Shown: piece after piece, positions 3,510 through 29,305 of the stretch | Position numbering within the stretch: position 1 is the first letter of the stretch | How the letters are laid out: the number at the start of each line of letters is the position of its first letter | Notes under the pieces: generated by a model | Databases searched by the model: none | What the model was told of the DNA's origin: nothing | The model's input: only the letters and a program-made list of their open reading frames with translations | Made by a program: the position numbers and the translations under genes | DNA from: a virus | Lineage: Duplodnaviria; Heunggongvirae; Uroviricota; Caudoviricetes | Reading direction: 5' to 3' (one strand) | DNA: 29,305 bases | Virus record (IMG/VR): IMGVR_UViG_2728369553_000012

Positions 3510-5775
3510 AGCCTCCGGGCGTTTTGTCCCTCCGTCAGCATTTGCCGCAGGCACCGGTAAGGCGTTTACCGGTGCTTATGCATGGAACGCGCCACGCGAG
3601 GCTGTCGGGCGCGAAAGACCTCTTACACGTGACGAGATGCGTCAGGTGCAAGGTGTTTTATCCACGATTAACCGCCTGCCTTACTTTTTGCGCTCGCTGT
3701 TTACTTCACGCTATGACTACATCCGGCGCAATAAAAGCCCGGTGCACGGGTTTTATTTCCTCACATCCACTTTTCAGCGTCGTTTATGGCCGCGCATTGA
3801 GCGTGTGAATCAGCGCCATGAAATGAACACCGACGCGTCGATGCTGTTTCTGGCAGAGCGTGACCACTATGCGCGCCTGCCGGGAATGAATGACAAGGAG
3901 CTGAAAAAGTTTGCCGCCCGTATCTCATCGCAGCTTTTCATGATGTATGAGGAACTCAGCGATGCCTGGGTGGATGCGCATGGCGAGAAAGAATCGCTGT
4001 TTACGGATGAGGCGCAGGCTCACCTCTATGGTCATGTTGCTGGCGCTGCACGTGCTTTCAATATTTCCCCTCTCTACTGGAAAAAATACCGTAAAGGACA
4101 GATGACCACGAGGCAGGCATATTCTGCCATTGCCCGTCTGTTTAACGATGAGTGGTGGACTCATCAGCTTAAAGGCCAGCGTATGCGCTGGCATGAAGCG
4201 TTACTGATAGCTGTCGGGGAGGTCAATAAAGACCGTTCTCCTTATGCCAGTAAACATGCCATTCGTGATGTGCGTGCGCGCCGCCAGGCAAATCTGGAAT
4301 TTCTTAAATCGTGTGACCTTGAAAACAGGGAAACCGGCGAGCGCATCGACCTTATCAGTAAGGTGATGGGCAGTATTTCTAATCCTGAAATTCGCCGGAT
4401 GGAGCTGATGAACACCATTGCCGGTATTGAGCGTTACGCCGCCGCAGAGGGTGATGTGGGGATGTTTATCACGCTGACCGCGCCGTCAAAGTATCACCCG
4501 GCACGTCAGGTCGGAAAAGGCGAAAGTAAAACCGTCCAGCTTAATCACGGCTGGAATGATGAGGCATTTAATCCAAAGGATGCGCAGCGATATCTCTGCC
4601 GTATCTGGAGCCTGATGCGCACGGCATTCAAGGATAATGACTTACAGGTCTACGGTTTGCGTGTCGTCGAGCCACACCACGACGGAACGCCGCACTGGCA
4701 TATGATGCTTTTTTGTAATCCACGCCAGCGTAACCAGATTATTGAAATCATGCGTCGCTATGCGCTCAAAGAGGATGGCGACGAAAGAGGAGCCGCGCGA
4801 AACCGTTTTCAGGCAAAACACCTTAACCGGGGCGGTGCTGCGGGATATATCGCGAAATACATCTCAAAAAACATCGACGGCTATGCACTGGATGGTCAGC
4901 TCGATAATGATACCGGTAGGCCGCTGAAAGATACTGCGGCGGCTGTTACCGCATGGGCATCAACGTGGCGCATCCCGCAATTTAAAACGGTTGGCCTGCC
5001 GACAATGGGAGCTTACCGTGAGCTACGTAAATTGCCTCGCGGCGTCAGCATTGCTGATGAATTTGACGAACGCGTGGAGGCTGCACGCGCCGCCGCAGAC
5101 AGTGGCGATTTTGCGCTGTATATCAGCGCGCAGGGCGGGGCAAATGTCCCGCGCGATTGTCAGACTGTCAGGGTCGCCCGTAGCCCGTCGGATGACGTTA
5201 ACGAATACGAGGAAGAAGTCGAGAGAGTGGTCGGCATTTACGCGCCGCATCTCGGCGCGCGTCATATTCATATCACCAGAACGACGGACTGGCGCATTGT
5301 GCCGAAAGTTCCGGTCGTTGAGCCTTTGACTTTAAAAAGCGGCATCGCCGCGCCTCGGAGTCCTGTCAATAACTGTGGAAAGCTCACCGGTGGTGATACT
5401 TCGTTACCGGCTCCCACACCTTCTGAGCACGCCGCAGCAGTGCTTAATCTGGTAGATGACGGTGTTATCGAATGGAGTGACCCGGAGGTCGTGATGGCGC
5501 TCAGGGGCGCATTAAAACACGGACTGAGAACACCAAATCGTCAGCAAAGAAACGGAAGCCCGTTAAAACCACATGAAATTGCACCATCGGCCAGACTGAC
5601 CCGGTCGGAAAGAATGCAAATTACCCGTATCCGCGTTGACCTCGCTCAGAACGGTATCAGGCCGCAACGATGGGAGCTTGAGGCGCTGGCGCGTGGCGCG
5701 ACCGTAAATTATGACGGGAAAAAATTCACGTATCCGGTTGCTGATGAGTGGCCGGGGTTCTCGTTACCCATTTGA
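3499..5775 (+). CDS. A: Rolling-circle replication initiator endonuclease (P2 gpA-like)
   Basis: ORF 3457..5775. HUH-type motif (GTPHWHMMLF) and a tyrosine-pair motif (AAGYIAKYISKNIDGY). Start at 3499 gives 758 aa against about 761 for P2 A; the 3457 start would overlap the previous ORF further. Confidence 0.85.
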   Translation: MAVKASGRFVPPSAFAAGTGKAFTGAYAWNAPREAVGRERPLTRDEMRQVQGVLSTINRLPYFLRSLFTSRYDYIRRNKSPVHGFYFLTSTFQRRLWPRIERVNQRHEMNTDASMLFLAERDHYARLPGMNDKELKKFAARISSQLFMMYEELSDAWVDAHGEKESLFTDEAQAHLYGHVAGAARAFNISPLYWKKYRKGQMTTRQAYSAIARLFNDEWWTHQLKGQRMRWHEALLIAVGEVNKDRSPYASKHAIRDVRARRQANLEFLKSCDLENRETGERIDLISKVMGSISNPEIRRMELMNTIAGIERYAAAEGDVGMFITLTAPSKYHPARQVGKGESKTVQLNHGWNDEAFNPKDAQRYLCRIWSLMRTAFKDNDLQVYGLRVVEPHHDGTPHWHMMLFCNPRQRNQIIEIMRRYALKEDGDERGAARNRFQAKHLNRGGAAGYIAKYISKNIDGYALDGQLDNDTGRPLKDTAAAVTAWASTWRIPQFKTVGLPTMGAYRELRKLPRGVSIADEFDERVEAARAAADSGDFALYISAQGGANVPRDCQTVRVARSPSDDVNEYEEEVERVVGIYAPHLGARHIHITRTTDWRIVPKVPVVEPLTLKSGIAAPRSPVNNCGKLTGGDTSLPAPTPSEHAAAVLNLVDDGVIEWSDPEVVMALRGALKHGLRTPNRQQRNGSPLKPHEIAPSARLTRSERMQITRIRVDLAQNGIRPQRWELEALARGATVNYDGKKFTYPVADEWPGFSLPI

Positions 5776-6035
5776 GTAAAAACACAACGTGATTTGATAT
5801 GGCATTGAATGGCTTATGCGGAGCAGTTATGGGGCAGCAGAAGGTCAATAGCATGCTGAATTAGAAGGCTAAATGCTATTGAGTGACTAGCATGTCGGTA
5901 AGGACAGCCGTTTGATCCGGGTCATAAAAGGCCATCCATTTAGTCTAATAAAATCATTGCGGGTAACCTTATGTCGACGCATAATTCGTCTTGAGCGAAG
6001 TCTTGTCAGTCTTTCATCGTATTGATGATGGGCGC

Positions 6036-6065
6036 AAAAAAACCACCCTGGCAGGTGGTTTTTTT
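6036..6065. terminator. Bidirectional rho-independent terminator
   Basis: AAAAAAACCACC-CTGGCA-GGTGGTTTTTTT: a 7-bp GC-containing stem with an A-run upstream and a T-run downstream, so it can terminate both the A transcript and the minus-strand small ORF. Confidence 0.6.
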
Positions 6066-6077
6066 GTTTGAAGCATA

Positions 6078-6191
6078 TTAAAGCATAATGCTGACATTGA
6101 TATTACTGACGTTTACTGACAAACCACTCGGACTACCGTTTGGATAGCCAAAGAGGGCCAGAACGAGAATGCAGTAATAGCATTTCTTCAT
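6078..6191 (-). CDS. Small hydrophobic peptide, 37 aa (MKKCYYCILVLALFGYPNGSPSGLSVNVSNINVSIML)
   Basis: Consensus AGGAGG 4 nt upstream of the ATG (plus-strand CCTCCT at 6196-6201). Short charged N-terminus, a 13-residue hydrophobic core and a polar tail; the stop lies 12 nt from the bidirectional terminator. I checked the translation by hand. The 88-codon version in the ORF track has no such ribosome-binding site. Confidence 0.4.
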   Translation of the reverse strand: MKKCYYCILVLALFGYPNGSPSGLSVNVSNINVSIML

Positions 6192-6669
6192 ATTGCCTCC
6201 TGTAAGTAGAGGGCAACTTCCACCGGTATATGCGCTTCTTAGGTGGAATGACTTTTGAGCGAAGTCTTGCCCTGAAATAATGCTCTGTTTAAACGCAAAG
6301 TGATTTGGCATATCACCGAACAGAGAGCCGGAAAAACACAACATATAGTATGTCGTTGTTTCTAGGCATACATTCTATGTTGTGTAACAAGGGCTTTGCA
6401 TTAAACATGTTTGAGATTTTATTGATGTAGCTCAAAGTAAAAAACAGAGACTACGGATGATAAGGTCTTGAAAGCAATGTAAATTTTTTAAAGTTGCCAA
6501 TTGCTTAAAAATGTACAGTTGCGGTATGGCGTACTTAAAAAGCTATGCATGCAACAAGTGAATGTTTTTGCATGCGTTGGGGATGTCCGTTCAGGCGGCG
6601 TGCGGTCAGGACTGGTGCGGATCCATAGTATCTATGCAACTGCATTAAAACCGCCCCGTGAAGCGGGCG

Positions 6670-6688
6670 GGCGAGGCGGGGAAAGCAC
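6670..6688. other. cos cohesive-end site
   Basis: GGCGAGGCGGGGAAAGCAC, which matches the 19-nt P2 cohesive end as I recall it, about 170 bp beyond the Q stop, as in P2. Confidence 0.55.
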
Positions 6689-6830
6689 TGCGCGCTGGCG
6701 GTGGTGCTGATTTTATTTTTTCAGCGTCTGAGCGCGTCGTGATGGCGTTTAGATTGTTCGCCGGGGCGTTGGTGTGTCTGCGGGCTGTTTTGTGCGGTGG
6801 TGAGCGTGTGAGGGCGTGATGGCGGGGTGT

Positions 6831-6852
6831 AAAAAAGCCGCCCGCAGGCGGC
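6831..6852 (-). terminator. Rho-independent terminator after Q
   Basis: GCCGCC-CGCA-GGCGGC hairpin; on the minus strand it is followed by a U-run (plus-strand A6 at 6831-6836), directly after the Q stop codon. Confidence 0.5.
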
Positions 6853-6857
6853 GATGT

Positions 6858-11827: not shown

Positions 11828-12633
11828 ATGACGAGTCCCGCACAGCGCCACATGATGCGGGTCTCGGCAGCGATGACCGCGCAGCGGGAAGCCGCCCCGC
11901 TGCGACATGCAACTGTCTATGAGCAGATGCTGGTTAAGCTCGCCGCAGACCAGCGCACACTGAAAGCGATTTATTCAAAAGAGCTTAAGGCCGCGAAAAA
12001 ACGCGAACTGCTGCCGTTCTGGTTGCCGTGGGTGAACGGCGTGCTGGAGCAGGGCAAAGGTGCACAGGATGACATTCTGATGACGGTCATGCTGTGGCGT
12101 CTGGATACCGGCGATATTGCCGGTGCGCTGGAGATTGCCCGTTATGCCCTGAAGTACGGTCTGACCATGCCGGGTAAACACCGCCGCACCCCGCCGTACA
12201 TGTTCACCGAGGAGGTGGCGCTTGCGGCCATGCGTGCTCACGCTGCCGGTGAGTCTGTGGATACCCGCCTGCTGACGGAGACCCTTGAACTGACCGCCAC
12301 GGCTGACATGCCTGATGAAGTGNNNNNNNNNNNNNNNNNNNNNNNNNNNNNNNNNNNNNNNNNNNNNNNNNNNNNNNNNNNNNNNGCGCAAAGCTGCACA
12401 AAATCACCGGTCTGTTTCTGCGTGACGGTGGTGATGCCGCCGGTGCGCTGGCTCACCTGCAACGTGCGACACAGCTCGACTGTCAGGCAGGCGTCAAAAA
12501 AGAGATTGAACGACTGGAGCGGGAGCTGAAACCGAAGCCGGAGCCGCAGCCCAAAGCGGCCACCCGTACCCCGCGTAAGACCCGGAGCGTGACACCGGCA
12601 AAACGTGGACGCCCGAAAAAGAAAGCCAGTTAA
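11828..12633 (+). CDS. M: Terminase small (endonuclease) subunit (P2 gpM-like), interrupted by an N run
   Basis: Follows N. Contains 63 N at 12323-12385, after which the frame changes; the C-terminal part ends at TAA 12631-12633 with a basic PKPEPQPKAATRTPRKTRS tail. True length unknown. Confidence 0.7.
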
Positions 12634-13242: not shown

Positions 13243-13521
13243 TGAAGACCTTTGCGCTACAGGGCGACACGCTCGACGCCATTTGTGTCCGGTATTACGG
13301 GCGCACTGAGGGCGTGGTTGAGACCGTGCTCGCCGCAAATCCGGGACTGTCTGAACTGGGTGCGGTGCTGCCACACGGCACCGCCGTCGAACTGCCCGAC
13401 GTTCAGACCGCGCCCGTGGCTGAAACNNNNNNNNNNNNNNNNNNNNNNNNNNNNNNNNNNNNNNNNNNNNNNNNNNNNNNNNNNNNNNNNNNNNNNNNNN
13501 NNTGTCAATCTGTGGGAGTAA
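13242..13521 (+). CDS. X: Tail protein X (P2 gpX-like), interrupted by an N run
   Basis: MKTFALQGDTLDAICVRYYGRTEGVVETVLAANPGL... matches P2 X (67 aa) as recalled, ending VNLWE after the N run 13427-13502. The N run is longer than the residues it replaces. Confidence 0.75.
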
Positions 13522-14317: not shown

Positions 14318-14797
14318 ATGAAGAAATTATCCCTTTCACTGACGCTGAACGTGTCGCTGGCGCTGATGCTGGCACTGTCCCTGATTTACCCGCAGAGCGT
14401 GGCCGTTAATTTTGTCGCCGCCTGGGCGATTATGGCGACGGTTATCTGTGTGGTTGCCGGTGGTGTCGGCGTGTATGCCACGGAGTATGTACTGGAACGC
14501 TACGGGCGGGAGCTGCCGCCGGAATCGCTGGCCGTGAAGATTGTCACGTCGCTGTTTTTGCAGCCGGTGCCGTGGCGCAGACGGGCGGCGGCTCTGGTAG
14601 TGATGGTGGCGACGTTTATCTCGCTGGTCGCTGCCGGGTGGATTTTTACTGCGCTGATTTATCTCGTGGCGTCGCNNNNNNNNNNNNNNNNNNNNNNNNN
14701 NNNNNNNNNNNNNNNNNNNNNNNNNNNNNNNNNTTTCCGGCTGATACGCACGGCCTGCCGTCAGCGTCTTGAGGGGCGGGAACTATGTCAAAGCTGA
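14318..14797 (+). CDS. lysA: Lysis timing membrane protein LysA-like, interrupted by an N run
   Basis: Multi-pass hydrophobic protein after K; 58 N at 14676-14733; stop overlaps the lysB start. Confidence 0.65.
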   Translation: MKKLSLSLTLNVSLALMLALSLIYPQSVAVNFVAAWAIMATVICVVAGGVGVYATEYVLERYGRELPPESLAVKIVTSLFLQPVPWRRRAAALVVMVATFISLVAAGWIFTALIYLVASXXXXXXXXXXXXXXXXXXXXFRLIRTACRQRLEGRELCQS

Positions 14798-16932: not shown

Positions 16933-17276
16933 CAGCGCGTTATCTCGGAATGAATCGCAGTGATGGCCTGACGGTCACTGACCTTGAGCATATCAGCCAG
17001 AGTATCGGCGATATCCTGCGCACACCGGTCGGCTCACGGGTGATGCGTCGTGATTACGGCTCGTTGCTGGCGTCAATGATTGACCAGCCGCAGACTCCGG
17101 CGCTTGAGTTGCAGATTAAGGTCGCCTGTTACATGGCAGTGCTGAAATGGGAACCCCGCGTCACCCTGTCATCCGTCACCACGGCGCGCAGTTTTGACGG
17201 GCGAATGACGGTCACGTTAACCGGTCAGCACAACGACACCGGCCAGCCACTTTCGTTAACCATCCCTGTGAGTTGA
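16929..17276 (+). CDS. W: Baseplate wedge protein (P2 gpW-like)
   Basis: 115 aa, the P2 W length; ATGA-coupled to V. Confidence 0.85.
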   Translation: MTARYLGMNRSDGLTVTDLEHISQSIGDILRTPVGSRVMRRDYGSLLASMIDQPQTPALELQIKVACYMAVLKWEPRVTLSSVTTARSFDGRMTVTLTGQHNDTGQPLSLTIPVS

Positions 17277-17280
17277 AACC

Positions 17281-18189
17281 ATGCCGATTATCGACCTGAA
17301 CCAGCTACCCGCACCGGATGTGGTCGAGGAGCTGGACTTTGAAACCATTCTTGCCGAACGCAAGGCGACACTGATTTCCCTTTACCCGGAAGACCAGCAG
17401 GAGGCGGTCGCCCGTACCCTGACGCTGGAATCTGAGCCTCTCGTCAAACTGCTGGAGGAAAATGCTTATCGTGAGCTTATCTGGCGTCAGCGTGTGAATG
17501 AGGCCGCACGGGCGGTGATGCTGGCCTGTGCCGCCGGTAATGACCTTGATGTGATTGGTGCCAATTACAACACCACGCGCCTGACTATCACCCCGGCAGA
17601 TGATTCGACCATCCCGCCGACACCGGCAGTGATGGAGTCTGACACCGATTATCGTCTGCGTATTCAGCAGGCGTTTGAAGGTTTAAGCGTCGCCGGGTCG
17701 GTGGGTGCCTATCAGTATCATGGCCGCAGTGCCGACGGGCGTGTCGCGGATATTTCTGTCACCAGTCCGTCTCCGGCCTGCGTCACTATCTCTGTGCTGT
17801 CACGTGAAAATAACGGTGTCGCATCCGAAGACCTGCTGGCCGTGGTGCGTAACGCCCTGAATGGCGAGGACGTCAGGCCGGTGGCCGACCGCGTGACCGT
17901 GCAGTCTGCCGCCATCGTTGAATACCAGATAAACGCCACGCTTTACCTTTACCCTGGTCCCGAAAGCGAACCCATCCGCGCTGCCGCCGTGAAAAAACTG
18001 GAAGCGTATATCACGGCACAGCACCGGCTGGGGCGCGATATCCGTCTGTCTGCCATTTATGCCGCTTTGCATGTGGAAGGTGTGCAGCGTGTCGAACTGG
18101 CTGCACCGCTGGCTGACATCGTGCTCAACAGTACGCAGGCGTCTTTCTGTACCGAATACAGCGTCGTGACCGGAGGCTCGGATGAGTGA
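17281..18189 (+). CDS. J: Baseplate protein J (P2 gpJ-like)
   Basis: 302 aa, the P2 J length. Confidence 0.85.
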   Translation: MPIIDLNQLPAPDVVEELDFETILAERKATLISLYPEDQQEAVARTLTLESEPLVKLLEENAYRELIWRQRVNEAARAVMLACAAGNDLDVIGANYNTTRLTITPADDSTIPPTPAVMESDTDYRLRIQQAFEGLSVAGSVGAYQYHGRSADGRVADISVTSPSPACVTISVLSRENNGVASEDLLAVVRNALNGEDVRPVADRVTVQSAAIVEYQINATLYLYPGPESEPIRAAAVKKLEAYITAQHRLGRDIRLSAIYAALHVEGVQRVELAAPLADIVLNSTQASFCTEYSVVTGGSDE

Positions 18190-18793
18190 TTCGCGACTGC
18201 TGCCGACCGGCTCATCACTGCTTGAAGTTGCCGCCGCAAAAGCCTGTGCGGAAATTGAAAAAACGCCGGTCAGTATTCGTGAGCTGTGGAACCCGGACAC
18301 CTGCCCGGCAAATCTGCTGCCGTGGCTGGCGTGGTCATTTTCGGTTGACCGCTGGGATGATAAATGGCCGGAAGCGACAAAACGCGCTGTTATCCGCGAT
18401 GCGTATTTCATTCACTGCCATAAGGGCACTATAGGCGCAATCCGGCGTGTGGTGGAGCCGCTCGGCTATCTGATTGAGGTGAGGGAGTGGTGGCAGCTCA
18501 ACGAGGAGCCGGGGACGTTCCGTATCGTTGTTGGCGTGCTTGAGCAGGGTATTACCGAAGAAATGTATCAGGAGCTGGAGCGCCTAGTTGCTGATGCAAA
18601 ACCGGCAAGCCGCCATCTGACGGGACTGGCTATCAGTTTAAGTACAACCGGCAACATTTTTGCCGGTGCGGGATGCTATCACGGTGACGCCCTGACGGTT
18701 TATCCCTACACCCCGGAGGCCATTATTGTCGGAGGGGATTATTTCCCGGCCTCGGCCATTCATTTAATTGATAACCTGAGAGTAAACGCATGA
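18182..18793 (+). CDS. I: Baseplate protein I (P2 gpI-like)
   Basis: 203 aa between J and the tail-fibre gene, overlapping both neighbours. Longer than P2 I (176 aa as I recall). Confidence 0.75.
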
Positions 18794-19950
18794 CAGTGAA
18801 ATACTACGCCATTCTGACTAATCAGGGCGCAGCACGGCTGGCTAACGCGACGATGCTCGGCAGTAAGCTGAATCTGACGCAAATGGCCGTTGGTGATGCG
18901 AATGGTGTCTTGCCGACACCAGACCCGGCACAGACAAAACTGATTAACCAGAAACGCATCGCGCCGCTGAATCTTCTGAGTGTTGACCCGAACAACCAGA
19001 GCCAGATTATTGCGGAGCAAATCATCCCTGAGAACGAGGGCGGATTCTGGATCCGTGAGATTGGGCTTTATGATGATGAAGGCGTACTCATTGCGGTGGC
19101 GAACTGCCCGGAAACGTACAAACCGCAGTTGCAGGAAGGCAGTGGTCGTACCCAGACTATCCGCATGATTCTGGTTGTCACGAATACCGAAGCTATCACG
19201 CTGAAAATCGACCCGTCGGTGGTACTGGCGACCCGTAAATACGTGGATGATGAAGTCCTGGAATTAAGGCTGTATGTGGATGACCAGATGAGAAACCACA
19301 TTGCCGCACAGGATCCTCATACCCAGTATGCGCAGAAACATAATCCGACATTTACCGGAGAACCAAAAGCGCCGACGCCTGCCGCAGGAAATAACACCAC
19401 GCGGATTGCGACCACTGCGTTTGTTCAGGCCGCTATTACCGCTCTGATTAACGGTGCGCCAGCCACGCTGGACACACTGAAAGAAATTGCCGCAGCCATT
19501 AACAATGACCCGAAATTCAGTACCACCATTAACAATGCGCTGTCAGGTAAGCAGCCACTGGATGAGACGCTGACTCATTTGAGTGGAAAGGATGTAGCTG
19601 GTCTTCTCGCATACCTTGGTTTGGGAGAAGCGGCAAAACGGAATGTGGGAACAGGGGAAAATCAGATACCTGATATGTCATCATATGCATCAGGTTCAGG
19701 CTGGCGAAAAATGCCAGATGGTTCAATTGAACAGTGGGGACGAATTAGTTTTCCTGGTGAACACGGGCCTGTATCCGCCAATGTTTCATTCCCGATTCCA
19801 TTTACACAGACACCGGGCATTGTAATTGTGTGCGATGGTGGTTTCGGGGGCGGGAATATGTGGGGGGCGACCAACTGGAGCACTACCGGCTTCATAGCTC
19901 ACTGCAATTATGGTCTTGAAGGTGGTGCGTTTTTCGCTAAGGGCTGGTAA
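18790..19950 (+). CDS. H: Tail fibre protein: constant N-terminal part fused to a variable C-terminal cassette in the current orientation
   Basis: 386 aa, in the P2 H position but shorter than P2 H (669 aa as I recall). The inversion crossover site lies inside the gene at 19604-19629, so residues after it belong to the invertible segment. Confidence 0.8.
19604..19629. repeat. Left crossover site of the invertible tail-fibre segment (gix/pix-like)
   Basis: TTCTCGCATACCTTGGTTTGGGAGAA; its last 14 nt (19616-19629) are the exact reverse complement of 21429-21442. Confidence 0.6.
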
Positions 19951-20393
19951 TGATGAAATATCTGTACGTAAACAACCTGGCATATCCTTACGAACTTCAG
20001 TCTCTTTATGTTGAAAAAGGTGAATGGCCTGAAGAAAAAGGTGTTGATATAGACGAAGTAATTTTCAGGGAATATTTCTATGACACACCACCAGAAGGAA
20101 AATACAGATGTGTTGGAGAAGATGGACTGCCTGCATGGGCAGATATTCCTCCACCAACACGTGAAGAACAAATTGCATCAGCCGAAACTAAAAAGCAGCA
20201 ATTGATTAATCAGGCCAACGATTATATGAACAGTAGACAATGGGTTGGTAAAGCGGCTATTGGTCGTCTGAAAGGTGAGGAACTGGCGCAATATAATTTG
20301 TGGCTGGATTATCTGGACGCACTGGAGCTGGTCGATACTTCCAGTGCACCAGATATTGAATGGCCTACTCCTCCGGCAGTTCAGGCCAGATGA
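19950..20393 (+). CDS. G: Tail fibre assembly protein (expressed orientation)
   Basis: 147 aa directly after H; C-terminus LDYLDALELVDTSSAPDIEWPTPP parallels the C-terminus of the inverted-orientation paralogue. Confidence 0.8.
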   Translation: MMKYLYVNNLAYPYELQSLYVEKGEWPEEKGVDIDEVIFREYFYDTPPEGKYRCVGEDGLPAWADIPPPTREEQIASAETKKQQLINQANDYMNSRQWVGKAAIGRLKGEELAQYNLWLDYLDALELVDTSSAPDIEWPTPPAVQAR

Positions 20394-20976
20394 CATCCGG
20401 CGCGGTGCTGGTATCTGTTGCCGTCACCGCGTCAATGTAATCCAGCACCGTGTTAAGTCGGCTGGTTTCTGCCTGCGTCAGATTCCGTCCGGCCCGTAAT
20501 TTCAGTTGAATCAGACTGATGGAAGCCATTGCAGTATCAATCAGCGACTGGCGTTGTGCTTCTGCTGCATCTACTGCGGCGCTATGCTGTGCATCGGTAT
20601 CCGTCACCCATTTCTCACCATCCCATTTATCGTATGGTGTTAACGGGGCGATAGTGGTTGTATTATCAGGGTAATCACCCGGAGCTGTGATTTCTTTTGA
20701 TTCTCCTGTTTCGGTGCTAAAGACGATTTCACCGCGATGGTCTGGCACATATTCCCATGAGTTAAAATCTGCAGAACGGCAGATTGCATAACCAGCCTTA
20801 TGTGTAACTGGTGCATCTAAACAAGAACATGCCGGGATACCGACGCCAACCGTAAGATATTCAGTTGATGTGGAAATATATTCCCGCGTTTCTCCGTTGT
20901 AGTTGTAAACGGTAATGAAGCCAGCCTCTGTGGCAAATCCGTTTTCATCCAAAGTGATTTTTTTTGTGGTCATCAT
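20365..20976 (-). CDS. Alternative tail fibre assembly protein (silent orientation)
   Basis: 203 aa on the minus strand, convergent with G; C-terminus LDYIDAVTATDTSTAPDVIWPELP is paralogous to G. Start ATG overlaps the stop of the upstream minus-strand fibre cassette. Confidence 0.75.
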   Translation of the reverse strand: MMTTKKITLDENGFATEAGFITVYNYNGETREYISTSTEYLTVGVGIPACSCLDAPVTHKAGYAICRSADFNSWEYVPDHRGEIVFSTETGESKEITAPGDYPDNTTTIAPLTPYDKWDGEKWVTDTDAQHSAAVDAAEAQRQSLIDTAMASISLIQLKLRAGRNLTQAETSRLNTVLDYIDAVTATDTSTAPDVIWPELPEE

Positions 20977-21428
20977 GCTGCCCTTACAATGTAGTTAAAT
21001 GCAATGTTACGTGGCCTTGTTTCTGCTGATGTTCTTGCACTCCTGGATAAATCAAGTGTCACACCATAGTAACTAAATGCATTACCAGTTGATGGAGCGG
21101 CATATTTAACCCCAGAACTAGAACCAACATTAAAAACTCCAGATGCTGAGGAAGCTGACCCCATAGTGTTATCAATCAGAGAACCCGTAACATTTTGCAT
21201 AGCGTCAAGTTGTTCGCTTAATAAAGCGCGTCCACTATCAACATCACGCCCGTCATCCCAGCCACGAATAAATTCACCTCGTAAATCAGGCAATTTATTT
21301 GTCGGATAAGCCTTTGCCAGTTCCGGGTATTCTTCAGCAGAAAAAAACGCACCGTTGCATTTCAGCCAGCCTGTTGGCGGAGTGGTGGAAGGCCACGGAA
21401 CAGGCACGCCAACGGGTAATGCCGAACC
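20973..21428 (-). CDS. Alternative tail-fibre C-terminal receptor-binding cassette; promoterless, expressed only after inversion fuses it to H
   Basis: Minus-strand ORF reading out of the right crossover site; fibre-tip-like sequence (LPVGVPVPWP...LPDLRGEFIRGWDDGR); no independent start expected. The same organisation as the Mu G segment and P1 C segment. Confidence 0.65.
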   Translation of the reverse strand, partial: GSALPVGVPVPWPSTTPPTGWLKCNGAFFSAEEYPELAKAYPTNKLPDLRGEFIRGWDDGRDVDSGRALLSEQLDAMQNVTGSLIDNTMGSASSASGVFNVGSSSGVKYAAPSTGNAFSYYGVTLDLSRSARTSAETRPRNIAFNYIVRAA

Positions 21429-21454
21429 TTCTCCCAAACCAACGTTTAAGAAAA
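21429..21454. repeat. Right crossover site of the invertible tail-fibre segment
   Basis: TTCTCCCAAACCAACGTTTAAGAAAA, an imperfect dyad resembling Gin/Pin/Hin-family recombination sites; inverted copy of the site at 19604-19629. Confidence 0.6.
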
Positions 21455-21509
21455 TGCAGAGATTACGGCTAACTGGCATCATCCCCGGTTTTTATTCAGG
21501 GGATCCATC

Positions 21510-21692
21510 ATGCTTATTGGCTATGTCCGCGTGTCAACAAATGACCAGAATACGGAATTGCAGCGTAACGCGCTGGAGTGCGCAGGATGTGAGCTGATTT
21601 TTGATATTGGCCTGTCCACGCTCTATAAAAAATTCCCCTCATCAGCGACAAAGAATAAATTGTGTCATCCCTTAGCCAACCGGGACAAATAG
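21510..21692 (+). pseudogene. Serine DNA invertase (Gin/Pin/Cin/Hin family) remnant with an in-frame internal deletion
   Basis: MLIGYVRVSTNDQNTELQRNALECAGCELIF matches the invertase N-terminus including the catalytic Ser motif. It is then joined directly to DIGLSTLYKKFP..., which matches the extreme C-terminus of Gin (...IYDVALSTLYKKHP...). About 150 residues of the catalytic domain and HTH are missing; only 60 codons remain. Confidence 0.8.
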
Positions 21693-21751
21693 CCTGACAT
21701 CTCCGGCACAACTGAAAATATCACTCACCCATTAACCACGGAGTTAAACGG

Positions 21752-22942
21752 ATGAGTGACTATCATCACGGCGTGCAGGTGCTGGAGATTAACGACGGCA
21801 CCCGTGTCATTTCCACCGTATCCACTGCCATTGTTGGCATGGTCTGCACGGCCAGCGATGCGGATGCGGAAACCTTCCCCCTCAATAAACCGGTGCTGAT
21901 TACCAATGTGCAGAGCGCAATTGCAAAGGCCGGTAAAAAAGGCACGCTGGCGGCATCGTTGCAGGCTATCGCCGACCAGTCAAAACCGGTCACCGTTGTT
22001 GTGCGCGTGGAGGACGGCACCGGCGACGACGAAGAAACGAAACTTGCGCAGACCGTTTCCAATATCATCGGCACCACTGACGAAAACGGTCAGTACACCG
22101 GACTGAAAGCCCTGCTGGCGGCAGAGTCGGTAACCGGTGTTAAACCGCGTATTCTTGGTGTGCCGGGACTGGATACCAAAGAGGTGGCTGTAGCACTAGC
22201 ATCCGTCTGTCAGAAGCTGCGCGCTTTCGGGTATATCAGCGCATGGGGCTGTAAGACCATTTCCGAGGTGAAAGCCTACCGCCAGAATTTCAGCCAGCGT
22301 GAGCTGATGGTCATCTGGCCGGATTTCCTCGCATGGGATACGGTCACCAGTACCACCGCCACCGCGTATGCCACCGCTCGTGCGCTGGGGCTGCGCGCTA
22401 AAATCGACCAGGAGCAGGGCTGGCATAAAACGCTGTCCAACGTCGGGGTGAACGGTGTTACCGGCATCAGCGCATCTGTATTCTGGGATTTGCAGGAGTC
22501 CGGCACCGATGCTGACCTGCTTAACGAGTCAGGCGTCACTACGCTGATTCGCCGCGACGGTTTCCGCTTCTGGGGTAACCGTACCTGCTCTGATGACCCA
22601 CTGTTTCTCTTTGAAAACTACACCCGTACCGCGCAGGTGCTGGCCGACACGATAGCTGAGGCGCACATGTGGGCGGTGGACAAGCCCATCACCGCAACGC
22701 TGATTCGCGACATCGTTGACGGCATCAATGCCAAATTCCGTGAGCTGAAAACAAACGGCTATATCGTGGATGGCTCATGCTGGTTCAGCGAAGAATCCAA
22801 CGATGCGGAAACCCTCAAGGCCGGAAAACTGTATATCGACTACGACTATACACCGGTGCCTCCTCTCGAAAACCTGACCCTGCGCCAGCGTATTACCGAT
22901 AAATACCTGGCGAATCTGGTCACCTCGGTTAACAGCAATTAA
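21752..22942 (+). CDS. FI: Tail sheath protein (P2 gpFI-like)
   Basis: 396 aa, the P2 FI length, followed by the tube gene. Confidence 0.9.
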   Translation: MSDYHHGVQVLEINDGTRVISTVSTAIVGMVCTASDADAETFPLNKPVLITNVQSAIAKAGKKGTLAASLQAIADQSKPVTVVVRVEDGTGDDEETKLAQTVSNIIGTTDENGQYTGLKALLAAESVTGVKPRILGVPGLDTKEVAVALASVCQKLRAFGYISAWGCKTISEVKAYRQNFSQRELMVIWPDFLAWDTVTSTTATAYATARALGLRAKIDQEQGWHKTLSNVGVNGVTGISASVFWDLQESGTDADLLNESGVTTLIRRDGFRFWGNRTCSDDPLFLFENYTRTAQVLADTIAEAHMWAVDKPITATLIRDIVDGINAKFRELKTNGYIVDGSCWFSEESNDAETLKAGKLYIDYDYTPVPPLENLTLRQRITDKYLANLVTSVNSN

Positions 22943-22954
22943 GGAGCCTGACCG

Positions 22955-23473
22955 ATGGCAATGCCGCGCAAACTCAAGTTAATGAACGTCTTTCTGAACG
23001 GCTACAGCTATCAGGGCGTCGCGAAGTCCGTCACGCTACCAAAACTGACCCGTAAGCTCGAAAACTATCGCGGTGCGGGGATGAACGGCAGCGCACCGGT
23101 AGACCTCGGCCTTGATGACGATGCGCTGTCAATGGAGTGGTCGCTCGGTGGCTTCCCGGATTCGGTTATCTGGGAGCTTTACGCCGCAACCGGTGTGGAT
23201 GCCGTACCGATTCGTTTTGCAGGCTCTTACCAGCGCGACGATACCGGCGAAACGGTGGCCGTCGAGGTGGTCATGCGTGGACGTCAGAAAGAAATCGACA
23301 CCGGCGAGGGTAAACAGGGAGAAGACACCGAGTCGAAAATCTCCGTGGTCTGCACCTATTTCCTGCTGACGATGGACGGTAAGGAGCTGGTCGAAATTGA
23401 CACCATCAACATGATTGAGAAGGTGAACGGCGTCGACCGGCTGGAGCAACACCGCCGCAATATCGGCCTGTGA
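22955..23473 (+). CDS. FII: Tail tube protein (P2 gpFII-like)
   Basis: 172 aa, the P2 FII length. Confidence 0.9.
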   Translation: MAMPRKLKLMNVFLNGYSYQGVAKSVTLPKLTRKLENYRGAGMNGSAPVDLGLDDDALSMEWSLGGFPDSVIWELYAATGVDAVPIRFAGSYQRDDTGETVAVEVVMRGRQKEIDTGEGKQGEDTESKISVVCTYFLLTMDGKELVEIDTINMIEKVNGVDRLEQHRRNIGL

Positions 23474-23528
23474 TTTTCATCCGGTCAGCCAGGCTGACCG
23501 GTAACCCCGATTCAGAAGTGAGAAAACC

Positions 23529-23956: not shown

Positions 23957-26455
23957 CAATGTAAAATTACAGGTATTGCTCAGGGCTGTTGACCAGGCAT
24001 CCCGCCCGTTTAAATCCATCCGCACAGCGAGCAAATCGCTGTCGGGGGATATCCGGGAAACACAAAAATCACTGCGCGAGCTGAACGGTCAGGCGTCCCG
24101 TATTGAGGGATTTCGCAAGACCAGTGCACAGCTCGCCGTGACTGGTCATGCACTTGAAAAGGCACGGCAGGAGGCTGAAGCCCTTGCCACACAGTTTAAA
24201 AACACCGAACGTCCGACCCGTGCTCAGGCGAAAGTGCTGGAATCCGCAAAGCGTGCGGCGGAGGACTTACAGGCGAAATATAACCGCCTGACGGATTCCG
24301 TTAAACGCCAGCAGCGGGAACTGGCCGCTGTGGGAATTAATACCCGCAATCTTGCACATGATGAGCAGGGACTGAAAAACCGTATCAGTGAAACCACCGC
24401 ACAGCTTAACCGTCAGCGCGACGCGCTGGCGCGTGTCAGTGCGCAACAGGCAAAACTTAACGCAGTCAAACAGCGTTATCAGGCCGGAAAGGAACTGGCC
24501 GGAAATATGGCCTCGGTGGGCGCTGCCGGTGTGGGGATTGCGGCGGCGGGAACGATGGCCGGAGTTAAGCTGCTGATGCCCGGTTATGAGTTTGCGCAGA
24601 AAAACTCAGAATTGCAGGCCGTGCTCGGAGTGGCAAAAGACTCCGCCGAAATGACCGCACTACGCAAACAGGCGCGCCAGCTCGGCGACAATACCGCCGC
24701 CTCGGCGGATGATGCGGCCGGTGCACAGATAATCATCGCGAAAGCGGGTGGGGATGTTGATGCCATTCAGGCGGCAACGCCGGTCACGCTGAATATGGCG
24801 CTGGCGAACCGCCGCACGATGGAAGAAAACGCCGCCCTGCTGATGGGGATGAAATCCGCCTTTCAGCTTTCAAACGATAAGGTCGCTCATATCGGGGATG
24901 TTCTCTCCATGACGATGAACAAAACCGCCGCCGATTTTGACGGCATGAGCGATGCGCTGACCTATGCCGCACCTGTGGCAAAAAATGCCGGTGTCAGCAT
25001 TGAAGAAACCGCCGCAATGGTCGGGGCGCTGCATGATGCAAAAATCACAGGCTCAATGGCGGGGACGGGAAGCCGTGCCGTGTTAAGCCGCCTGCAGGCN
25101 NNNNNNNNNNNNNNNNNNNNNNNNNNNNNNNNNNNNNNNNNNNNNNNNNNNNNNNNNNNNCGACGGGAAAAGCATGGGATGCACTCAAAGAGCTTGGCGT
25201 GAAAACCTCAGACAGCAAGGGAAACACCCGGCCAATATTTACCATTCTGAAAGAAATGCAGGCCAGTTTTGAGAAAAACCGGCTCGGTACTGCCCAGCAG
25301 GCTGAATACATGAAAACTATTTTCGGGGAGGAGGCCAGCTCAGCCGCCGCCGTGCTGATGACTGCCGCCTCAACCGGAAAGCTGGACAAACTGACCGCTG
25401 CGTTTAAAGCCTCAGACGGGAAGACCGCCGAGCTGGTAAATATCATGCAGGACAACCTAGGCGGTGACTTTAAAGAGTTTCAGTCCGCTTATGAGGCAGT
25501 GGGGACTGACCTGTTTGACCAGCAGGAAGGCGCGCTGCGTAAGCTCACGCAGACGGCCACAAAGTATGTGTTAAAACTCGACGGCTGGATCCAGAAAAAC
25601 AAATCACTGGCGTCAACCATCGGCATCATTGCCGGTGGCGCGCTGGCGCTGACTGGCATCATCGGTGCCATTGGCCTCGTAGCCTGGCCGGTTATCACCG
25701 GCATCAATGCCATCATCGCGGCAGCAGGCGCAATGGGGGCAGTCTTCACGACGGTTGGCAGTGCTGTTATGACCGCCATCGGGGCTATTAGCTGGCCGGT
25801 TGTGGCCGTGGTGGCCGCAATTGTCACCGGGGCGTTGCTTATCCGTAAATACTGGGAGCCTGTCAGCGCATTCTTTGGCGGTGTGGTTGAAGGGCTGAAA
25901 GTGGCATTTGCGCCGGTGGGGGAACTGTTCACGCCACTTAAGCCGGTGTTTGACTGGCTGGGTGAAAAGTTACAGGCCGCGTGGCAGTGGTTTAAAAACC
26001 TGATTGCTCCGGTCAAAGCCACTCAGGACACCCTGAACAGTTGCCGTGACACGGGGGGCATGTTCGGGCAGGCACTGGCTGACGCGCTGATGCTGCCGCT
26101 TAATGCGTTCAACAAACTGCGCAGCGGTATTGACTGGGTACTGGAAAAACTCGGTGTTATCAACAAAGAGTCAGACACACTTGACCAGACCGCCGCCAGA
26201 ACTCAAGCCGCCACGTATGGCAGCGGTGGTTATATTCCGGCGACCAGCTCTTATGCAGGCTATCAGGCTTATCAGCCGGTCACGGCACCGGCTGGCCGCT
26301 CTTATGTGGACCAGAGTAAAAACGAATATCACATCAGCCTGACGGGTGGTACTGCGCCGGGGACACAGCTTGACCGCCAGTTACAGGATGCGCTCGAAAA
26401 ATACGAGCGGGATAAACGTGCGCGCGCCCGTGCCAGCATGATGCATGACGGTTAA
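23949..26455 (+). CDS. T: Tail tape measure protein (P2 gpT-like), interrupted by an N run
   Basis: Long helical, Ala/Gln-rich protein with a hydrophobic Gly/Ala-rich central segment. The N run 25100-25160 splits it into two ORFs in different frames in the track (23949..25202 and 25199..26455). Confidence 0.85.
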
Positions 26456-26469
26456 GGAGGTGACGAAAA

Positions 26470-27001
26470 ATGATGCTCGCGTTAGGTATGTTTGTTTTTA
26501 TGCGCCAGACGCTGCCACACCAGACCATGCAGCGTGAATCAGATTATCGCTGGCCGTCAAATTCCCGTATCGGTAAACGGGATGCCTACCAGTTTCTCGG
26601 TGTGGGTGAGGAAAACATGACGCTTGCCGGCGTGCTTTATCCCGAACTGACCGGCGGGAAGCNNNNNNNNNNNNNNNNNNNNNNNNNNNNNNNNNNNNNN
26701 NNNNNNNNNNNNNNNGACGATGACCACGCTCAGGCTGATGGCAGAGGAAGGCCGGGCGTGGCCGTTGCTGGATGGCACCGGCATGATTTACGGCATGTAT
26801 GTCATCAGCAGGGTGAGTGAAACAGGGAGTATTTTCTTTGCAGACGGCACACCCAGAAAAATTGATTTTACGCTGTCGCTCACCCGCGTTGATGAATCAC
26901 TGGCCGCGCTTTATGGCGATATCGGTAAACAGGCGGAATCGCTCATCGGTAAAGCTGGCAGTATGGCGACCAGATTCACGGGTATGACGGGGGCGGGATA
27001 A
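26470..27001 (+). CDS. U: Tail protein (P2 gpU-like), interrupted by an N run
   Basis: Between T and D; N run 26663-26715; stop overlaps the D start (TAATG). Confidence 0.75.
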
Positions 27002-28222
27002 TGCTGGATGCACTGACATTTGATGCAGGCAGTACGCTGACGCCGGATTACATGCTGATGCTCGACAGCAGGGATATTACCGGCAATATCAGCGACCGTC
27101 TGATGAGCATGACCCTGACGGATAACCGGGGCTTTGAGGCTGACCAGCTTGATATTGAACTGAACGATGCCGACGGGCAGGTCGGGCTGCCGGTTCGTGG
27201 CGCTGTCCTGACGGTGTATATCGGCTGGAAAGGTTTTGCCCTGGTATGCAAAGGGAAATTTACCGTTGATGAGGTTGAACACCGGGGCGCACCGGATGTG
27301 GTCACCATCCGCGCCCGGAGTGCAGATTTTCGCGGGACGCTCAATTCCCGCCGTGAAGGCTCATGGCATGACACCACGCTCGGTGCGATTGTTGAGGCGA
27401 TAGCCTCCCGTAATAAGCTGGAANNNNNNNNNNNNNNNNNNNNNNNNNNNNNNNNNNNNNNNNNNNNNNNNNNNNNNNNNNNNCAGTGTCGCGCCGTCAC
27501 TGGCAGGAATTAAAATCCCGCACATCGACCAGTCGCAGGAGTCTGATGCGAAATTCCTGACCCGTCTTGCAGAACGCAACGGCGGTGAGGTGTCGGTAAA
27601 AATGGGAAAACTGTTGTTTCTCAAAGCGGGGCAGGGGGTGACGGCCAGCGGTAAAAAAATCCCGCAGATTACCATCACCCGCAGCGACGGCGACCGCCAT
27701 CATTTTGCGATTGCTGACCGTGGAGCCTATACCGGCGTAACGGCAAAGTGGTTACACACCAAAGACCCGAAGCCACAAAAGCAGAAGGTAAAACTGAAAC
27801 GCAAAAAGAAAGAGAAACACCTGCGCGCACTGGAGCACCCGAAAGCGAAACCAGTCACGCAGAAGAAAGCGCCAAAAGTACCGGAAGCGCGCGAAGGTGA
27901 ATACATGGCAGGTGAGGCTGACAACGTTTTTGCCCTGACCACGGTATATGCCACGAAAGCGCAGGCCATGCGCGCCGCTCAGGCGAAGTGGGATAAGCTG
28001 CAACGGGGTGTTGCGGAATTCTCCATCAGTCTGGCTACTGGTCGGGCAGATATTTATACGGAAACGCCGGTCAAAGTGTCAGGCTTTAAGCGCGTCATAG
28101 ACGAGCAGGACTGGACAATCACTAAGGTGACACATTTTCTGAATAATAGCGGCTTCACGACGTCCTTAGAGCTTGAGGTCAGGCTTTCTGATGTGGAGTA
28201 CGAAACAGAAGATGATGAATGA
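27001..28222 (+). CDS. D: Tail protein D / late control gene D (P2 gpD-like), interrupted by an N run
   Basis: Last large late gene before ogr; N run 27424-27483; about 387 aa expected. Confidence 0.8.
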
Positions 28223-28663: not shown

Positions 28664-29305
28664 ATGGAAAAAGTTATAATTGAGCTTGATAATCGTTGGG
28701 AGTTAGCTGATTTCGCGGTCTTAACGAAAGAGTATTTGCAGCTATATGGTTTTTTTTATGGCCTAAAAGGAGGATCAAGAGGATATTCAACAATGCCTTG
28801 GGAGGGTGGGCACAGTGTGGTGAACTTTTTTAGAGGGGCTTACAGTGCGACTCCACCAGATTTACGTCCTGTAGTGAAAAAAATTCAGTATGCCTCTCCT
28901 GGCTTTATTGAATTGTCTGCTCTTATTGATATCTCTTGGCAGATTGCTGAGTTAGTTACTGCTGTTGGTGGAAGTATTCTGGCTGCCAACAAAGTTTACG
29001 ATCAGGTGATGCGTACATATCGACAAAGAGAATGGGCAAAGTTGAAATCAGAGAAGCTGCGTATACAGAATCAAATTAAAGAGATTGAACTTGTTTCTGA
29101 CGCAGTTAAATCACTTGAATCTGTGATGGCACTTAGTGAAGAACAACGTAAAAACTTGGTTCAACTATCGGGGGCAGATGAACTGGTTCAGTTAAAGATA
29201 CTTTTGGCTGTTTACCGACGGTTATCTCCTCTTGTTGAGTTGCAAAACAGCGGGAAAGCTAATTTTTCTGCTGGGAAAAATAAAAATTTAAAAGCGTCCG
29301 ATTAA
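28664..29305 (+). CDS. Hypothetical 213-aa protein, AT-rich, beyond the ogr terminator
   Basis: Complete ORF with a GGTGG ribosome-binding site; much more AT-rich than the prophage; the C-terminal half looks coiled-coil-like. No recognisable catalytic motif. Lies outside the canonical P2 gene set. Confidence 0.55.
   Translation: MEKVIIELDNRWELADFAVLTKEYLQLYGFFYGLKGGSRGYSTMPWEGGHSVVNFFRGAYSATPPDLRPVVKKIQYASPGFIELSALIDISWQIAELVTAVGGSILAANKVYDQVMRTYRQREWAKLKSEKLRIQNQIKEIELVSDAVKSLESVMALSEEQRKNLVQLSGADELVQLKILLAVYRRLSPLVELQNSGKANFSAGKNKNLKASD

Follow-up and report, generated by a model that had tools for sequence, protein, structure and literature searches.

An invertible tail-fibre segment beside an invertase remnant in a P2-like prophage of Escherichia coli

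We analysed the IMG/VR virus record IMGVR_UViG_2728369553_000012, a stretch of 29,305 nucleotides (the window) that carries a P2-like prophage. Downstream of the constant part of its tail-fibre gene H lies a segment of about 1.8 kb, bounded by two inverted crossover sites, in which two fibre tips and two fibre assembly genes are encoded on opposite strands. The gene next to this segment is a short remnant of a serine invertase gene of the Gin/Cin family, and the same segment is found in the opposite orientation in the finished genome of E. coli MNCRE44, beside the same remnant. Here we describe the locus, examine its occurrence in public genomes and discuss how a segment that has lost its invertase could be inverted.

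Crossover sites, fibre tips and assembly genes

The features of the locus are as follows, with positions given in the window.

18790-19950, plus strand: tail-fibre gene H as now assembled, 386 amino acids, with the constant part running to 19615 and the variable tip following the crossover site
19604-19629: left 26-bp crossover site, TTCTCGCATACC TT GGTTTGGGAGAA, within the fibre coding sequence at the ...LLAYLGLGE motif
19616-21442: invertible segment, 1827 bp from central dinucleotide to central dinucleotide, delimited by its opposite-strand alignment to MNCRE44
19630-19950, plus strand: expressed variable tip, 106 amino acids, Gp53-like_C
19950-20393, plus strand: tail-fibre assembly gene G, 147 amino acids, PF02413 Caudo_TAP (E=3e-33), phrog_188, expressed in the present orientation
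20365-20976, minus strand: alternative assembly gene G', 203 amino acids, PF02413 (E=1e-32), phrog_105, silent in the present orientation
20973-21442, minus strand: silent alternative fibre tip, 151 amino acids past the shared LGLGE, Collar domain PF07484 (E=8e-15)
21429-21454: right 26-bp crossover site, TTCTCCCAAACC AA CGTTTAAGAAAA
21510-21692, plus strand: invertase remnant, 60 amino acids, in which approximately residues 1-31 are joined in frame to the last 29 or so of a 197-residue Gin/Cin-family invertase
21528-21599: stretch homologous to what is annotated in P1 cin as the recombinational enhancer (nucleotides 19-90 of that gene), retained intact
21593-21604: deletion junction, the single remaining copy of GCTGATTTTTGA
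21752-22942, plus strand: tail sheath gene FI, with Phage_sheath domains, the right-hand boundary of the variable slot

The longest inverted repeat within 17000-23500 has arms of 27 nt at 19604-19630 and 21428-21454, which are 81% complementary and separated by 1797 nt. The perfect 14-mer TTCTCCCAAACCAA occurs across the whole window only at 19616-19629 on the minus strand and at 21429-21442 on the plus strand. These are the 14-bp core repeats from which a sequence-only reading of the window had proposed an invertible segment, and the coordinates and lengths it gave all hold. When up to two mismatches were allowed, the core matched twice in the window, with 0.14 matches expected by chance, and two matches were reached in none of 100 shuffles. 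A multi-site shufflon was rejected because these two were the only matches at that threshold. Each site consists of two imperfect 12-bp half-sites flanking a central dinucleotide, and the two sites are in inverted orientation. The core, perfect in both, comprises the inner half-site and the central dinucleotide. The same 12-2-12 layout is found in cixL of phage P1, whose crossover is annotated in the central TT, and the right-hand 16-mer CCTTCTCCCAAACCAA at 21427-21442 equals a published site of the P segment of the e14 element.

The H protein carries the Phage_tail_fib N-terminus (PF12571) at residues 1-150 and Gp53-like_C at residues 307-374, as assigned by Pfam. Open reading frame (ORF) and Pfam analysis bore out the earlier proposal of two fibre C-termini and two assembly genes on opposite strands, with assembly proteins of 147 and 203 amino acids. 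G and G' are convergent, and their 3' ends overlap by 29 bp. The shared C-terminus predicted for their products was found in a pairwise comparison, where similarity was confined to the C-termini (39% identity over 69 amino acids, E=4e-11). The two tips, compared in the same way, are unrelated (E=0.14). The segment also contains an 18-nt inverted repeat with 83% complementarity (20303-20320 and 20429-20446), which exists because the convergent assembly genes encode similar C-termini (LDYLDA and LDYIDA). The silent tip does not have a start of its own, and the ORF caller stretched it (20973-21482) to a spurious ATG at 21482.

The sequence-only reading had considered that the minus-strand ORFs could be degraded fragments. 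They proved to be intact, and inversion of 19616-21442 in silico preserved the frame, converting the fibre of 386 amino acids into one of 431. The constant 280 residues common to both forms, which end in the partly site-encoded ...LLAYLGLGE, are then followed by the 151-residue Collar tip, and the 203-residue assembly gene comes directly after. Inversion thus swaps the C-terminal part of the fibre along with the assembly gene, giving each fibre form its own Caudo_TAP gene. The exact 431-residue fibre is present in public records, and MNCRE44 has an annotated coding sequence of matching length (WP_044343225.1). By likeness to Mu and P1, the two forms would have different host ranges.

The invertase remnant and the two orientations in public genomes

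The remnant gene was overlooked in the sequence-only reading. Its ORF begins MLIGYVRVSTNDQ, and the product matches the Resolvase domain PF00239 at positions 2-42 only and the PHROG 'DNA invertase' family with E=5e-23. A recombinase gene of 594 bp occupies the same position in E. coli EA2, E. coli NCTC9040 and Escherichia phage pro483. The intact alleles of these relatives are 79% identical to P1 Cin and match crystal structures of Mu Gin with E=1e-94, which marks them as true Gin/Cin-family invertases. Alignment to the 594-bp alleles revealed a clean in-frame deletion of 411 bp in the window between two copies of the 12-bp direct repeat GCTGATTTTTGA. The 137 missing codons comprise the bulk of the catalytic domain as well as part of the DNA-binding domain. 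Consequently, a functional serine invertase gene is absent next to the segment, where only the remnant is found, and the NCBI Prokaryotic Genome Annotation Pipeline (PGAP) calls the MNCRE44 copy a pseudogene.

Since nucleotides 1-95 of the invertase gene are unchanged in the window, the enhancer-homologous stretch at 21528-21599 is intact. It is identical at 57 of 72 positions to the P1 enhancer and at 69 of 72 to an intact allele, and its distance from the centre of the right site is 86-158 bp. For comparison, the hin enhancer is located about 100 bp from its site (PMC3798978). As read from these alignments, the deletion took away the enzyme and left the cis elements, i.e., both sites and the enhancer homologue.

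A search of 5426 complete E. coli genomes with the constructed flipped junction found it in MNCRE44 as a single piece with 100% identity over 1130 bp. This genome carries the same deleted invertase, also in one unbroken piece, in a prophage integrated between cpxP and fieF. When the window was compared to the MNCRE44 prophage by BLAST, every block outside the runs of N in the window was 100.000% identical and on the same strand, except the segment. Positions 19616-21445 aligned to the opposite strand and had a single mismatch, at the edge, the segment itself (19616-21442) being 100% identical, and the alignment blocks overlapped only within the repeats. The inverted isomer expected from the sequence-only reading is therefore present in a finished genome, and the comparison indicates that inversion does occur.

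The deletion junction was found in 25 of the complete genomes, and parts of the locus matched 3562 of them. The exact 60-residue remnant product is present on 434 contigs in the protein collection, and this protein was used as an anchor to fetch a range of contexts, plus further complete genomes. Exact-sequence look-up found the 386-residue fibre on 25 contigs and the 431-residue fibre on 24. All five fetched contigs that have the 386-residue form and extend to the invertase gene carry the deletion. Among the complete genomes, the cassette of the window was not found with an intact invertase in either orientation. Four cassette types (1823, 1193, 1856 and 1829 bp) occur beside the same deletion, each in both orientations. 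In the best pair of each type the segments are 98.9-100% identical, with near-identical flanks.

Two draft assemblies of the same prophage are irregular at this place. The scaffold in GCA_000408365.1 (L030, KE137028.1) has 850 Ns at 3569-4418, exactly between the crossover sites, and a noisy chimeric assembly (L025, GCA_964043915.1, 2600-3181) has the Collar tip at both ends with about 97% identity. Such irregularities would arise if reads of the two orientations had been assembled together, which lends circumstantial support to mixed populations. The 1193-bp cassette (L006, L012 and L024 in one orientation, L011 and L023 in the other) has a single assembly gene, and one of its orientations leaves the expressed tip without an assembly gene after it. 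Either this tip needs no chaperone or the fibre is defective.

Exchange point, alternative explanations and the source of the enzyme

The 1193-bp cassette allowed the exchange point to be located, because its inner half-sites differ (TTCTCCCAAACC and TTCTCCAAATCC). The flipped isomer, found in strain P50 and in L023, has these inner half-sites at exchanged ends, and its outer half-sites have not moved. Comparison of the junctions confined the exchange to the 4-bp interval TTGG, of which the central TT is part. This interval coincides with the annotated cut of P1 Cin in cixL and is too short for homologous recombination.

We consider it likely that the locus is an inversion switch of the Gin/Cin/Pin family in a P2-like fibre operon, now an orphan segment that has had its own invertase deleted and is flipped in trans. 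One site lies inside the fibre gene and the other just upstream of the invertase gene, and recombination at the central TT would flip the 1.8 kb between them. The constant part of 280 amino acids would thereby be joined either to the Gp53-like tip with the 147-residue chaperone or to the Collar tip with the 203-residue chaperone. The invertase gene was destroyed by the 411-bp in-frame deletion between the 12-bp direct repeats. Since both sites and the enhancer homologue survive, the segment should remain a competent substrate, and a related serine invertase produced from another locus in the same cell would flip it. The simplest history would be that the deletion came first and was followed by repeated inversion. 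Inversion after the deletion would have to act in trans, and an invertase other than the prophage's own thus probably still flips the segment. The reaction may be expected to depend on Fis and the enhancer.

Other explanations can be offered for the same observations. If the segment were a fossil, locked when the invertase was lost, an ancestor with a working invertase must have existed as both isomers, and each isomer must have undergone the same 411-bp deletion on its own. The 12-bp direct repeat that flanks the deletion is a plausible hotspot for slippage, and genome H86 has an intact allele whose flanks are 100% identical. However, with each cassette type occurring in both orientations, this history requires the identical deletion to have occurred at least four more times, once per type, and an intact-invertase copy of the window's cassette was found in neither orientation among the complete genomes. 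The nearly equal numbers of isomers (25 and 24) and the assembly gap and chimera that fall exactly at the segment also argue against a frozen state, which we regard as unlikely. The orientations could also have been generated by general recombination, either through RecA-dependent crossing-over at the short inverted repeats or by replacement of the cassette from a co-resident prophage with the opposite orientation. Fibre modules are indeed widely shuffled between prophages, and a prophage of the co-resident type that has the same sites and the same G protein is found in sequence type 131 (ST131). On the other hand, the 1193-bp pair exchanged within just 4 bp of identity at the centre of the site, which is too short for RecA, and for this reason a RecA-type inversion was rejected. 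Moreover, the window and MNCRE44 are 100% identical in flanks, segment and aligned window, with breakpoints inside the 14-bp core. Taken together, general recombination is very improbable as the origin of the isomers.

Even less credible is a mis-join across the inverted repeat in the assembly of the window or of MNCRE44. The six runs of N mark the window as a scaffolded draft, and some assemblies of the locus are visibly broken. Yet the arms of only 14-27 nt are shorter than any read, the orientation of the window recurs in five contigs from different samples or assemblies, and the other orientation is found in a finished genome and on 24 contigs. An assembly error would also have to reproduce, in the second pair, a swap of half-sites exactly as predicted by the chemistry.

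For the switch operated in trans, precedents exist. The e14 P segment is inverted by PinE, but also by PinQ and PinR of other prophages (PMC12529663), and the published e14 sites TTGGTTTGGGAGAAGG and CCTTCTCCCAAACCAA contain the 14-bp core of the window. Action of PinE on the Mu G segment and of Fin of Fels-2 on the Salmonella H (hin) segment is cited in the same source (PMC12529663). In MNCRE44, a query composed of a strain-specific tag and the missing 411-bp core matched five places, compared to four for the tag alone. As the longer query could only merge places, the MNCRE44 chromosome must hold one or more additional homologues of the invertase core, a plausible source of the enzyme in trans.

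Possible donors were considered as well. The ST131 strain 4224 has a 186-like prophage beside asnS (L032/L033, NZ_CP103592.1, 3121-3154 kb) with 26-bp sites identical to those of the window, an identical 147-residue assembly protein (WP_000978829.1) and an intact invertase of 188 amino acids. Its cargo includes genes for a DprA-like protein, a phosphoribosyltransferase and a KAP NTPase. When its invertase was used as the query, MNCRE44 was absent among the matches listed, with 234 records ranked above. Apart from this, MNCRE44 has a Mu-like early region (transposase, ExeA/MuB-like protein, Gam, gp16 and Mor) at 1029-1036 kb (L034, 1-5877). On one side this region stops abruptly at chromosomal ycaL, and late genes or gin are not visible there.

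Several points weigh against inversion in trans after loss of the invertase. The best specific candidate for the donor of the invertase, the 186-like prophage, was rejected for MNCRE44 because the syntenic ompF-asnS site is empty in this strain. A deletion between direct repeats could in principle recur, and the case for the deletion having preceded inversion would then be less strong. Inversion within one culture was deduced from the comparison of assemblies, and the contig counts may contain the same strain from several archives. The function assigned to the enhancer homologue rests on 79% identity to the P1 annotation. A simple search for Fis motifs found two G-N13-C motifs spaced 49 bp apart, compared to 48 bp in the Hin enhancer, and these were not used as evidence.

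A further possibility, which we put forward tentatively and consider improbable, is that the invertase-null allele is more than decay and that some P2-like prophages outsource fibre switching to the invertases of co-resident prophages or plasmids. This idea is based on the selective loss of the enzyme with the sites and the enhancer region untouched, and on at least four cassettes that still occur in both orientations. If true, the switching rate and the host-range mix of the progeny would be set by the other mobile elements of the cell. In a weaker variant, the in-frame 60-residue product may have a regulatory role of its own.

Related switches, the prophage backbone and implications

Among the closest described parallels is the P segment of e14 in E. 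coli K-12 (stfE-tfaE / tfaP-stfP, with pinE). It is also about 1.8 kb long, has two tips and two assembly genes arranged tail to tail, an invertase gene just outside one site, and published inversion sites with the identical 14-bp core. The defective e14 remnant retains a functional PinE of its own, whereas the locus described here belongs to a complete P2-like prophage from which the cis invertase is deleted. P2-like relatives with an intact invertase (pro483, 'P2' of O157:H43 T22, and the prophages of enteropathogenic E. coli (EPEC) E2348/69) have the same order, I-H-G / G'-tip'-invertase-FI, which is widespread in E. coli, together with an identical left site and a right site that differs by at most one base. 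They differ in having a full invertase of 188-197 amino acids instead of the 60-residue remnant. In EPEC E2348/69, the fibre segments of two P2-like prophages switch in culture, as found by sequencing and the polymerase chain reaction (Goldberg et al., PMC4272514), and one of the two is a three-site shufflon (PMC4272514).

The G/Gin system of Mu and the C/Cin system of P1 share the serine invertase family, the 12-2-12 sites with crossover in the central TT, and a constant fibre part that is joined to one or the other of two tips, with a separate chaperone for each. P1 Cin also has its enhancer in the 5' end of the invertase gene. The segments of Mu and P1 are longer (3 and 4.2 kb, compared to 1.8 kb here) and reside in a different phage backbone. 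The end of cin that abuts cixL in P1 is the 3' end, whereas here, as in Mu, it is the 5' end of the invertase gene that faces the site. The Fin protein of Fels-2, which acts on the Hin segment of Salmonella LT2, offers a precedent for cross-talk in which the invertase of a P2-family prophage acts on a segment elsewhere (cited in PMC12529663); there, both loci keep their own invertase. From these similarities, the locus appears to work like, and to descend from, the Gin/Cin/Pin systems. Without a functional adjacent invertase, we file it as a degenerate, putatively trans-dependent member.

The backbone follows P2 gene order from integrase through ogr, with Tail_P2_I, Baseplate_J and sheath domains detected by Pfam. 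The hallmark order is int, cox, A, Q, P, O, N, M, L, X, lysis genes, R, S, V, W, J, I, H, G, FI, FII, E, T, U, D, ogr. The identical prophage in MNCRE44 has a full P2-type annotation, and the relative pro483 is classified as a Peduovirus. By gene content, the host element is a complete P2-like (Peduoviridae) prophage of E. coli. Phage P2 has fun(Z) between G and FI, and in the window this slot is occupied by G' together with the silent tip and the remnant of the invertase gene. The sequence-only reading had placed the segment at the Z/fun locus, which is reasonable. Its description of a Mu/P1-style segment in a P2 backbone is supported as well, except for the claim that the segment replaces the H/G arrangement, since H is still present with G after it.

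Six runs of 53-76 Ns interrupt the window (12323-12385, 13427-13502, 14676-14733, 25100-25160, 26663-26715 and 27424-27483). In the MNCRE44 prophage they correspond to only 0-4 bases, and they have the appearance of arbitrary scaffold gaps or masks that do not stand for lost sequence. The tape-measure gene is among the genes that they break up into false ORFs. A region of 1.08 kb between replication gene A and the portal gene (5776-6857) contains no ORF longer than 88 amino acids and is unannotated in MNCRE44; in P2, the variable tin/old genes occupy this position. The 88-residue ORF at 6078-6344 had no Pfam match, and an Rfam scan of the whole window, 5776-6857 included, gave no match. Two cargo-like ORFs, one of 213 amino acids (28664-29305) after ogr at the right end of the prophage and one of 166 amino acids (1923-2423) after cox, belong to no Pfam family and are annotated as 'hypothetical protein' in MNCRE44.

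Invertible fibres were already known in P2-like prophages. What is added here is an invertase-deleted allele that is still found in both orientations, which points to cross-prophage control and fits the recent picture in which Pin-type invertases of different prophages act on each other's segments. About 5%, or 1 in 20, of the loci of this prophage type lack the enzyme (25 genomes with the deletion junction, compared to 452 that match most of the locus). For annotation, this means that a short 'recombinase pseudogene' beside fibre genes is no ground for regarding the switch as locked, and that the fibre proteins at such loci have two valid forms. For the engineering of phages and tailocins, each orientation would provide a defined pair of fibre and chaperone, which could be fixed by removing trans-acting invertases.

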